A stretch of 53,359 bases of DNA from Actinomycetota bacterium (lineage in GTDB: Bacteria; Actinomycetota; CADDZG01; JAHWKV01; JAOPZY01). The DNA lies in contig DASXNO010000026.1 in NCBI GenBank assembly GCA_036495025.1, positions 1 through 53,359 on the forward strand, read 5' to 3'. Positions 37,946-39,217 of the stretch are shown here, piece by piece. A program made the translations under genes and the position numbers. The notes below the pieces were generated by a model. It did no database searches, was not told the origin of the DNA, and saw only the letters and a program-made list of their open reading frames with translations. Within the stretch, counting starts at the first letter, position 1; every line of letters starts with the position of its first letter.

Positions 37946-39217
37946 ATGAAGACGGCGCGCGCGCAGTCGGTCATCGTTCTTGGAGCCGACGGGTATCTTG
38001 GCTGGCCGATGTGCCTTCACCTGTCACGCCTGGGTCACCAGGTCGTCGCCGTCGACAACCTGGCACGGCGGCAATGGGACGTCGAGGGGGGCTCGCACAG
38101 CCTCGTGCCGATTGCGTCCCTGGAGCAGCGAGTCGCCCGCTGGTGGGCTGAGACCGGGCTCGAGATCGACTGGCGGCTGCTCGACGTCTGCGACGCGGAG
38201 GCACTGACCGAGCTCTTCCTGGAGGTCGAGCCGCAGGCCGTGGTCCATTTCGCCGAGCACCGGTCGGCTCCCTTCTCGATGATCGACCGGGAGCACGCGG
38301 TCCGCACCCAGGTCAACAACGTCGTGGGTACCCTCAACGTCATGTTCGCGATCAAGCAGGCGGCGCCGGACTGCCACCTCATCAAGCTCGGCACGATGGG
38401 CGAGTACGGGACACCCAACATCGACATCGAAGAGGGATACATCGACATCGAGCACAACGGCAGGCGCGACCGGCTGCCGTTCCCCAAGCAGCCTGGCAGC
38501 TTTTACCACCTCTCCAAGGTCCATGACAGCCACAACATCCACTTCGGCTGCCGCGTGTGGGGCCTGCGGGCCACTGACCTGAACCAGGGCGTGGTGTACG
38601 GCGTGGAGACCCCCGAAACGGCTCTTCACCCCGAACTGGCCACCCGCTTCGACTTCGACACCGTCTGGGGCACGGTCCTCAATCGCTTCTGCGTGCAGGC
38701 CGCCGTGGGTCAGCCGATCACCCCGTATGGGAAAGGCGGGCAGACCCGGGGATACCTCGACATCCGCGACACCCTGGCCTGCGTCACCCTGACGCTGGAC
38801 CACCCGCCGGAGCAGGGTGAGTTCCGGGTCTTCAACCAGTTCACCGAGCAGTTCTCGGTCCGCGAGCTGGCCGACCTCGTCGCCAGCGTCCGTCGCGCCC
38901 AGGGGCTCGACACGGTCGTCACGCACATCCCGAACCCCCGCTTCGAGCTGGAGGAGCACTATTACAACGCGAAGCACCAGTGCCTCCTCGACCTCGGCCT
39001 CGAGCCCCACCTGCTGGCCGATACCCTGATGAGCTCGGTCATCGGCGTGGTGGAGGAGCATGCCGCCCGCGTCGACCCGGTGCTGCTCTCGGAGCCCAGC
39101 GTCACGTGGAAGCAGGGCGGCAACGACGTGTGGCGGCGCTACGCAGGCAGGTCCCGGAACGGAGACGACACGGATCTCAGCATCATCATCGACGACAGGG
39201 AGACGGCCGAAGCTTAA
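37946..39217 (+). CDS. sqdB: UDP-sulfoquinovose synthase (SQD1/SqdB-type SDR) homolog
   Basis: Near-continuous matches to SQD1 hallmark blocks as I remember them: [20 protein letters not shown]...R...[122 protein letters not shown]. Confidence 0.85.

Follow-up and report, generated by a model that had tools for sequence, protein, structure and literature searches.

According to a 2026 review, the biosynthetic route of sulfoquinovose is the SqdB-SqdX pair, which makes the thylakoid lipid sulfoquinovosyl diacylglycerol (SQDG) (PMC13436972), and in the current framing the N-glycan of Sulfolobus is the one exception that is not a lipid. Among glycan synthases, the family 2 glycosyltransferase (GT2) is known to depend on an adjacent HlyD-type protein in the BgsB-BgsA(-TolC) system, which makes the mixed-linkage beta-glucan of Sinorhizobium, and in the cyanobacterial systems composed of an HlyD-like protein, a cellulose synthase and TolC (PMC13438883). 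We have analyzed a stretch of DNA of 53 kb (about 70% G+C) from an uncultured soil actinobacterium, here called the window, which is the part of this genome covered by our data. In it, a gene for a UDP-sulfoquinovose synthase (sqdB) is the first of an operon that continues with the genes of an HlyD-type adaptor, a TIM-barrel lipoprotein and a membrane-integrated GT2 of the synthase type. The pairing of sqdB with this kind of GT2 is recurrent in other loci and points to an undescribed sulfonated glycan, either secreted or located at the cell surface.

The operon and its UDP-sulfoquinovose synthase

The four genes follow each other on the plus strand (Table 1) with a spacing of 27 nt, a 4-nt overlap (GTGA, in which the GTG start of the lipoprotein gene overlaps the stop of the adaptor gene) and 10 nt. 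The coordinates, the domains and these tight gaps confirm the initial annotation of the region, in which sqdB had been described as heading an operon with an adaptor, a lipoprotein and a GT2. That annotation had also pointed out the lack of a nearby family 4 glycosyltransferase (GT4), the type that makes the sulfolipid, and Pfam scans of all the called open reading frames (ORFs) in the 53 kb gave indeed neither a GT4 nor a GT8.

The sqdB ORF goes from ATG to stop exactly between the ends given in Table 1, with the Shine-Dalgarno sequence GGAGGGGG located 6-12 nt 5' of the start. The G+C content at the three codon positions (0.68/0.41/0.90) is the typical coding pattern for a window of this composition, and the value of 0.90 at the third position (GC3) led us to judge the ORF as coding. 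When the PDB was searched with phmmer, Arabidopsis SQD1 (1I24/1QRR) was retrieved with E-values of 2.4e-162 to 2.9e-162, the alignment being a single ungapped stretch over query residues 8-392 with 62% identity across 384 aligned residues. The next structures, UDP-glucuronate decarboxylase and GalE, had E-values of only about 1e-7. The sole strong NCBIfam match was NF041015, UDP-sulfoquinovose synthase (468 bits, E 1.9e-140), with 37 bits for GalE, so that the protein is set well apart from the epimerases. The score does not reach the equivalog cutoff of NF041015 (575 bits). We considered this as a possible warning sign and rejected it: three further bacterial SqdB homologues (P0006, P0022 and P0075) score 480-490 bits and fall short too, so this cutoff is non-discriminating for bacterial proteins of the SQD1 type.

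The catalytic set of SQD1 is formed by T145, Y182 and K186, plus H183, and mutagenesis of the T-M-G-E-Y segment in Agl3 left M145A inactive and E147A and Y148A impaired (PMC4388408). In the motif alignment, T150, Y187, H188 and K191 of the window SqdB correspond to T145, Y182, H183 and K186 of SQD1, the segment T150-M151-G152-E153-Y154 matches that of SQD1 exactly, and the NAD-binding Rossmann motif is found as G13xxG16xxG19. The hallmark blocks of SQD1/SqdB on which the initial annotation had based its assignment, five quoted peptides, are all present in the translation. A census of the 120 nearest homologues indicated that apparent motif failures were mostly conservative T-to-S changes or artefacts of the regular expressions, and not catalytic losses. 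As judged by these alignments, the window SqdB is a full-length SQD1/SqdB orthologue with its catalytic residues all intact, and the reaction is presumably the same as that of SQD1, i.e., the conversion of UDP-glucose and sulfite into UDP-sulfoquinovose. In a neighbour-joining tree (no bootstrap), the copies of SqdB linked to GT2 genes are located in a sub-clade with enzymes of Dormibacterota, outside the cyanobacterial/plant branch.

The GT2 synthase

The product of the last gene of the operon matches the Pfam families Glyco_trans_2_3, Glycos_transf_2 and Glyco_transf_21. About seven N-terminal and three C-terminal transmembrane (TM) helices are predicted to flank the GT-A domain, in which we found the motifs D316-D317-G, H346-x-G-K349, D369-x-D371, C434-x-P-G-T, G459-E-D461 and Q497-R-T-R-W501. 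Over 32 members of the family, D316-D317, D369-x-D371, E460-D461 and Q497-R-T-R-W501 are invariant. No NCBIfam equivalog was reached, the best being PgaC_IcaA with 109 bits against a cutoff of 422, and MftF, CelA and NodC were far below. Thus, by its profile matches, this GT2 is a member of a distinct family without a name. The family is large and its members (640-660 aa) come from Actinomycetota metagenomes and metagenome-assembled genomes (MAGs) labelled Acidimicrobiales, Streptosporangiaceae and Mycobacteriales.

The AlphaFold2 (AF2) model had a mean local confidence (pLDDT) of 86 and a predicted template modelling score (pTM) of 0.86. The top matches found by Foldseek were PcManGT, the hyaluronan synthases of a Chlorella virus and of Xenopus, and BcsA. 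With the hyaluronan synthases the target TM-score was about 0.6 and 420-450 columns were aligned. PcManGT is the best PDB match both by sequence and by fold. Five positions (H346, K349, C434, R535 and R541) mark the clade of the GT2s that are linked to sqdB. We rejected H346, K349 and C434 as markers of a sulfonate donor, since they are part of ancestral synthase motifs. R535 is part of an R-V/I-T motif similar to a gating loop, and the relevance of R535 and R541 to a sulfonate donor is only suggestive.

Recurrence of the linkage between sqdB and the GT2

We have searched for similar loci from both sides. On the sqdB side, we examined the 80 most similar loci in species-representative genomes, which were mostly from Dormibacterota (66-75% identity), followed by Acidobacteriota, Chloroflexota and others. 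The adaptor, the GT2 and the lipoprotein family were found in 0/80 of them, save for a lipoprotein gene in one locus (L016). The loci of the Dormibacterota type have another conserved context, with a weak GT4 match three genes off in L004. On the GT2 side, a metagenome scan returned 80 loci, in which the constant unit is the GT2 gene plus a gene of the lipoprotein family and an adaptor-like gene. This module is common across metagenomes of Actinomycetota, in most cases with no sqdB, and has homologues in the cultured genera Nocardia and Actinospica, those of the lipoprotein being found in Nocardia sp. NPDC059240 and Actinospica sp.

In a minority of these loci a true sqdB (54-94% identity) was located within about 0.3-3.2 kb of the GT2 gene, and at least six arrangements could be distinguished: sqdB-adaptor-lipoprotein-GT2 (the window, L001 and L091), sqdB..adaptor-GT2 (L093 and L094), sqdB-adaptor-GT2-lipoprotein (L103), sqdB divergent from adaptor-GT2-lipoprotein (L089 and L090), adaptor-GT2-sqdB (L087 and L088), and a SqdB-like domain fused to the adaptor (L086 and L095). 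The linked SqdB is fully intact in the window, L087, L089, L091, L093, L094 and L103. No GT4 or GT8 gene was present within 10 kb of the sqdB-linked L086, L087 and L089.

In a neighbour-joining tree, the GT2s of all the sqdB-linked arrangements are on one side of the deepest split. We have called A-type the side with H346xGK349, C434, R535 and R541, and B-type the one with NGGQ, V, W and G at those positions; adaptor homologues adjoin the GT2 gene in A-type and B-type loci alike. Considering loci with a flank of at least 6 kb, sqdB was linked in 4/5 A-type versus 1/41 B-type loci of the unbiased scan (Fisher p = 1.5e-4) and in 8/12 versus 1/44 when all loci were counted (p = 3e-6), p-values that are indicative only, and count for less in favor of the linkage, given that the loci are mutually related and L086, L087 and L089 were chosen non-randomly. 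The variety of gene orders is a stronger argument than these p-values.

The sole B-type case (L155, 10892-12211) and another locus (L100, 696-2027) have, at 1.4-2.2 kb from the GT2 gene, a divergent short-chain dehydrogenase/reductase (SDR) of the SqdB family. It has 38-41% identity to the window SqdB, the motifs TMGVY and YHLTK, an insertion of three residues and 313 bits with NF041015, with nothing else comparable. The GT2 of L100 has an NxGK motif and is basal to the B-type clade. Judging from this divergence, the SDR is a second, independent recruitment of the SqdB family to the GT2 family, and it may be an unrecognised subfamily of UDP-sulfoquinovose synthases or have a related activity.

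A functional coupling of UDP-sulfoquinovose supply to the GT2 synthase is therefore well supported by the gene neighborhoods, because the linkage recurs in at least six orders, in one GT2 clade and with fusions, and the closest sqdB loci of other phyla lack the module. The initial annotation had proposed that sqdB feeds a GT2 instead of a lipid GT4, giving a sulfonated polymer. The part concerning the coupling is sustained by these data, and the polymer is a predicted product.

Some other observations concern the contexts of the two genes. In two A-type loci that were sampled blindly, L175 and L176 (GT2 at about 10001-11950), the module is located in a conserved stretch of housekeeping genes, after panC, nadB, nadC, coaX and lysS and before a polyprenyl synthase gene, clpC, radA, carD, ispD and ispF, and the polyprenyl synthase gene is convergent to the GT2 gene. 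In L177, a 913-aa glyoxal-oxidase-like protein (Glyoxal_oxid_N + GO-like_E_set) is encoded at 2505-5246, about 5 kb upstream of the A-type GT2 and with genes between. This single case recalls the cslA-glxA pairing of Streptomyces.

We have also looked at other sqdB genes of Actinomycetota (at about 10001-11200 of each locus), which have varied neighbors. Only one of the four, that of a Gaiellaceae (L031), has a classical lipid-type context, with a divergent GT4 and a UDP-glucose dehydrogenase. In L036 sqdB has as neighbors a Wzx-type flippase and genes for dTDP-sugars (RmlA/RmlB-like), in L049 it is located 1.2 kb from a GT2 gene with DUF2304, and in L079 it is found between UppP/BacA and an LCP ligase. 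The neighborhoods of L036 and L079 are envelope-glycan contexts too, so that such contexts of sqdB in Actinomycetota extend beyond the operon described here.

The adaptor and its fusions

The adaptor begins with a disordered tail of about 125 aa, rich in Pro and Gly, that is followed by RDRRTRK and a single TM helix at about 127-154. The tail is predicted to be cytoplasmic because RDRRTRK precedes the single TM helix, and the lipoyl-like, coiled-coil and beta-barrel parts that follow are predicted to lie outside the membrane. In the loci L086 (831 aa, 6520-9015) and L095 (815 aa, 4454-6898), a single ORF codes for a SqdB-like domain that a linker and a TM helix connect to the adaptor. The same architecture was thus found in two independent assemblies, plus the database representative P0408 retrieved by an exhaustive search with the adaptor. 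The fused domain is N-terminal to the single TM helix of the adaptor, i.e., on the predicted cytoplasmic side. In both L086 and L095 it keeps GxxGxxG, with the catalytic Tyr replaced by F or G, the Lys by Q, and T-M-G-E-Y degraded. The assembly of L086 also has an intact stand-alone SqdB (L174), 137 kb off on the same contig and with no glycosyltransferase near.

We read these fusions as evidence of a physical association of SqdB with the adaptor tail that would operate, for example, through a dead domain that recruits the active enzyme. They suggest a principle that can be tested, in which a membrane-fusion protein tethers nucleotide-sugar enzymes through its cytoplasmic tail.

With the window segment 39602-40876 as query, an exhaustive search also retrieved P0369 (932 aa) and P0430 (829 aa), in which the adaptor family is N-terminally fused to a Sulfatase (PF00884) plus SGSH_C. 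The position of the sulfatase signature reads T-T-P-S-H and not C/S-x-P-x-R. The adaptor N-tail is therefore joined to a family related to sulfo-sugars in a second way, besides SqdB.

The lipoprotein

The lipoprotein has a signal peptide, a lipobox, a Pro-rich linker and a (beta/alpha)8 TIM barrel at about 73-317 (AF2 pLDDT 85). No Pfam or NCBIfam match was obtained, and an identical 317-aa product is present in the protein collection (P0241). In the family alignment the invariant residues include D148, E150, W152, Q223, Q225, W287 and N289, and at least 90% of the members have kept C297 and C300. Foldseek retrieved generic TIM barrels only (phosphonopyruvate-hydrolase-like proteins, aldolases and TIM), with weak matches to a chitinase and PslG, and we rejected an assignment to a hydrolase family on these generic matches. 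A homologue stands beside the GT2 gene in most loci, and this context makes the lipoprotein a candidate glycan-processing enzyme.

In the locus L016, from a MAG labelled Chloroflexi, a gene of the lipoprotein family (1742-2590, minus strand) is convergent to sqdB (436-1734), and a GT2 gene is absent within 10 kb, a hint that the lipoprotein family may have a tie to sulfoquinovose that does not depend on the GT2.

A putative mechanism and its alternatives

We consider that there is an even chance that the four genes code for one machine that makes and exports a beta-linked glycan containing sulfoquinovose. In such a machine SqdB, cytoplasmic and placed at the membrane, would turn UDP-glucose and sulfite into UDP-sulfoquinovose. 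The inverting GT2, similar to cellulose and hyaluronan synthases, would use it, alone or with another UDP-sugar, for the synthesis of a beta-linked chain, which would be threaded through a transmembrane channel of the GT2 itself. The HlyD-type adaptor, anchored by one helix, would provide a conduit or scaffold at the outer face, with SqdB docking on its cytoplasmic N-tail, and the lipoprotein would trim, release or remodel the chain outside the membrane. In this scheme UDP-sulfoquinovose as the donor of the GT2, a polymer as product and the roles of the adaptor tail and of the lipoprotein are what we infer from the data presented above. A more specific version, in which a clade of soil Actinomycetota makes a beta-linked polymer of C6-sulfonated sulfoquinovose and SqdB is recruited, sometimes by fusion, to the adaptor tail to channel the substrate, is tentative and somewhat doubtful.

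Several points weigh against the scheme. The polymer is inferred, not shown, its support being made of genes and predicted structures, and PcManGT, the closest solved relative of the GT2 by sequence, may not be a polymer synthase. A GT4 of the SqdX type could be located outside the 53 kb of the window. In most B-type loci, and in 3/3 of the blind-sampled A-type ones (L175-L177), sqdB is absent within 10 kb. Such modules indicate that a linked sqdB is not needed and that another donor, such as UDP-glucose, may be general. The lipoprotein has no glycoside-hydrolase signature recognisable by Foldseek. Finally, from the residues that they have lost, the fused SqdB-like domains are pseudoenzymes, incapable of making UDP-sulfoquinovose, and may have a non-catalytic role.

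Among the alternatives, the one that survives best, although we find it unlikely, is that the coupling is real but leads to a non-polymeric product. The GT2 would then add one or a few beta-sulfoquinovose residues to diacylglycerol, polyprenyl phosphate or a lipid-linked oligosaccharide. The outcome would be a new sulfoglycolipid, or a carrier-linked sulfoquinovose moved later to wall polymers or proteins, and the adaptor and the lipoprotein would handle export or transfer. The match to Glyco_transf_21, a type that includes ceramide glucosyltransferases and processive glycolipid glycosyltransferases, is in line with this idea, as is the best PDB match, PcManGT being a small archaeal membrane GT2 implicated in N-glycan assembly. 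The proximity of sqdB to a GT2 gene with DUF2304 in L049 can be read in the same way. Besides, glycolipid exporters also use HlyD-type adaptors, and the adaptor of the window weakly matches a DevB-family model of NCBIfam. However, the operon has no ABC or RND pump as partner for the export of a lipid, and the GT2 combines about 10 TM helices with QxxRW, typical of the synthases that translocate their chain, and aligns over the 420-450 columns mentioned above with hyaluronan synthases. GT2 enzymes are inverting, and hence the canonical alpha-SQDG would be impossible as the product.

It is still less probable that the glycan is an ordinary one, for example a beta-glucan made from UDP-glucose, and that SqdB or the SqdB-like domain acts as a regulator or scaffold that binds UDP-glucose and NAD, or as a co-regulated competitor for UDP-glucose. 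The absence of a linked sqdB from most modules would be explained, as would the fused domains, in which the Rossmann motif is kept and the catalytic Tyr and Lys are lost, as if retained for a non-catalytic purpose. Also, the GT2 clade linked to sqdB retains the HxGK and CxPG(T) motifs classical of cellulose synthases. Against it, the stand-alone SqdB is fully intact in the window and in the six other loci listed above, and its similarity to SQD1 equals that of the Dormibacterota enzymes. A costly enzyme that adds sulfite is kept in six arrangements, which is hard to explain if its product were not used, and a second, divergent lineage of the SqdB family has also been recruited by the GT2 family.

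The least probable alternative is that the adjacency has no functional meaning for the GT2 and the product of SqdB goes into ordinary SQDG by way of a GT4 or GT8 whose gene is located elsewhere, for which there are precedents in the unlinked sqdB and sqdX of Synechocystis (PMC13436972), in the divergent GT4 of the Gaiellaceae locus and in the weak GT4 match of L004, but which cannot explain at least six gene orders, a single GT2 clade (with the p-value of 1.5e-4 given above), a spacing at the scale of translational coupling and the fusion to the adaptor.

Surroundings of the operon

The features of the window are collected in Table 1. The initial annotation had described sqdB as divergent from a second giant GT2. 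A large GT2 does exist on the minus strand, but the gene directly divergent from sqdB codes for a coiled-coil protein. We rejected this large GT2 as part of the system, as it recurs, with its DUF5719 partner, only in the contig L091 of the same species, and it is a separate GT2-DUF5719 unit. The DUF5719 gene does not show in mechanical lists of ORFs, since its reading frame continues without a stop into the upstream gene. On the other side of the operon, metH starts 42 nt past the GT2 gene. It was also rejected as a member of the system, since Pfam and NCBIfam identify a plain methionine synthase. A scan of 36400-44200 detected no promoter or terminator, which is uninformative in a high-GC actinobacterium, and the only Rfam match of the window was a thiamine pyrophosphate (TPP) riboswitch away from the operon, directly 5' of a DAO-family gene (ThiO-like) that is followed by thiG. 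Other housekeeping genes of the window, typical of Actinomycetota, code for a fused CofG/H (FbiC), CofD, CofE, and proteins of lipoate and 2-oxoacid dehydrogenase metabolism. A sortase/pilin-like cluster and a Tad/Flp-type pilus cluster are in line with a surface-active actinobacterium. An ORF whose N-terminal domain is similar to the AbiEi_4 antitoxin (E 6.6e-8) is located between a Zincin_1 gene and the DUF5719 gene. It may be a mobile or defence-related insertion because its GC3 (0.79) is below that of its neighbors.

Table 1. Position of the sqdB operon and of other features in the window
Feature	Position	Strand	Product (aa)	Basis or content
thiE	1284-1946	-
Sortase/pilin-like cluster	2117-10197			Two sortase genes, DUF11 surface protein
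TPP riboswitch	10241-10374	+		RF00059, 56.4 bits
DAO-family (ThiO-like) gene	10366-11562
thiG	11762-12538
Tad/Flp-type pilus cluster	15996-22550			TadE/G-like gene, T2SSE ATPase
ORF with AbiEi_4 antitoxin-like domain	30757-31866	-
DUF5719 protein	31790-33154	-
Large GT2 with polytopic membrane domain	33169-36507	-	1112
Coiled-coil protein, directly divergent from sqdB	36566 to about 37708/37843	-		No Pfam match
sqdB, UDP-sulfoquinovose synthase orthologue, cytoplasmic SDR	37946-39217	+	423	PDB and NCBIfam match, motifs
HlyD/RND-type membrane-fusion (periplasmic adaptor) protein	39245-40879	+	544	Pfam Biotin_lipoyl_2, HlyD_3; NCBIfam RND_mfp (66 bits) and further adaptor models
Lipoprotein of an unnamed family	40876-41829	+	317	Lipobox LLAC, AF2 fold
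Membrane-integrated GT2 synthase	41840-43789	+	649	Pfam, motifs, AF2 model
MetH, methionine synthase	43832-47545			Pfam, NCBIfam

Significance and comparison with known systems

In the literature we have found no bacterial sulfoquinovose polymer and no coupling of sqdB to a GT2 synthase, in agreement with the remark of the initial annotation that no such polymer was known for this type of organism, although the coverage of the search was limited and absence is no proof. All the parts of the operon come from known superfamilies. What is new is the presence of a dedicated enzyme for the donor sugar, and of an unusual enzyme-adaptor fusion, in a synthase-dependent glycan system. The module of adaptor, TIM-barrel lipoprotein and GT2 itself appears to be uncharacterised.

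If the proposed scheme is true, there would be a new biological sink and source of sulfoquinovose in non-photosynthetic soil Actinomycetota, that is, a source in soils that is neither lipid nor derived from phototrophs. As an analogue of glucuronan or hyaluronan that bears sulfonate, the polymer would represent a new anionic chemistry for envelopes or exopolymers, since the sulfonate is charged at any pH and free of phosphorus. It would also be a new class of substrate for sulfoglycolytic bacteria, probably invisible to the known alpha-specific sulfoquinovosidases because it is beta-linked.

The sulfolipid pathway of plants, cyanobacteria and some proteobacteria (SQD1/SqdB with SqdX or SQD2) shares with the window the first enzyme, including its catalytic residues, at the identity given above. 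The second step is different. In that pathway diacylglycerol is glycosylated by a retaining GT4 (SqdX/SQD2) or GT8 (SqdD), and here the partner is an inverting polytopic GT2 with an adaptor and a lipoprotein, so that, compared to SQDG, the product would have a beta linkage and would probably be something other than a membrane lipid. The N-glycan of Sulfolobus acidocaldarius, for which Agl3 is required, provides a precedent for the use of UDP-sulfoquinovose in a cell-surface glycoconjugate that is not a lipid (PMC4388408). That system is however archaeal, with a dolichol-linked glycan and protein glycosylation dependent on an oligosaccharyltransferase, and Agl3 shares only about 40% identity with SQD1. 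In our case the GT2 is bacterial, of the synthase type and accompanied by a membrane-fusion protein, and the window has no AglB-like gene.

Like in the BgsBA-TolC and cyanobacterial cellulose systems, the gene of an HlyD-type adaptor adjoins the GT2 gene and is conserved with it. Those systems belong to diderms, use UDP-glucose, are controlled by cyclic di-GMP and have a TolC channel, whereas the host here is an actinobacterium and neither TolC nor PilZ-type or other cyclic di-GMP domains were found in the operon proteins or in the window. Furthermore, the operon adds a TIM-barrel lipoprotein and a dedicated enzyme for the nucleotide sugar, the latter sometimes fused to the adaptor. With the class I hyaluronan synthases, BcsA, PgaC and NodC, the GT2 of the window has in common the GT-A core with D, DxD, (T/G)ED and QxxRW and, possibly, a membrane channel. 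The identity to them is only 15-21% and the N-terminal region of seven TM helices is different. The hyaluronan synthases provide the precedent that one GT2 can polymerise an anionic sugar, and the donor in the present case would bear a sulfonate at C6 instead of a carboxylate.

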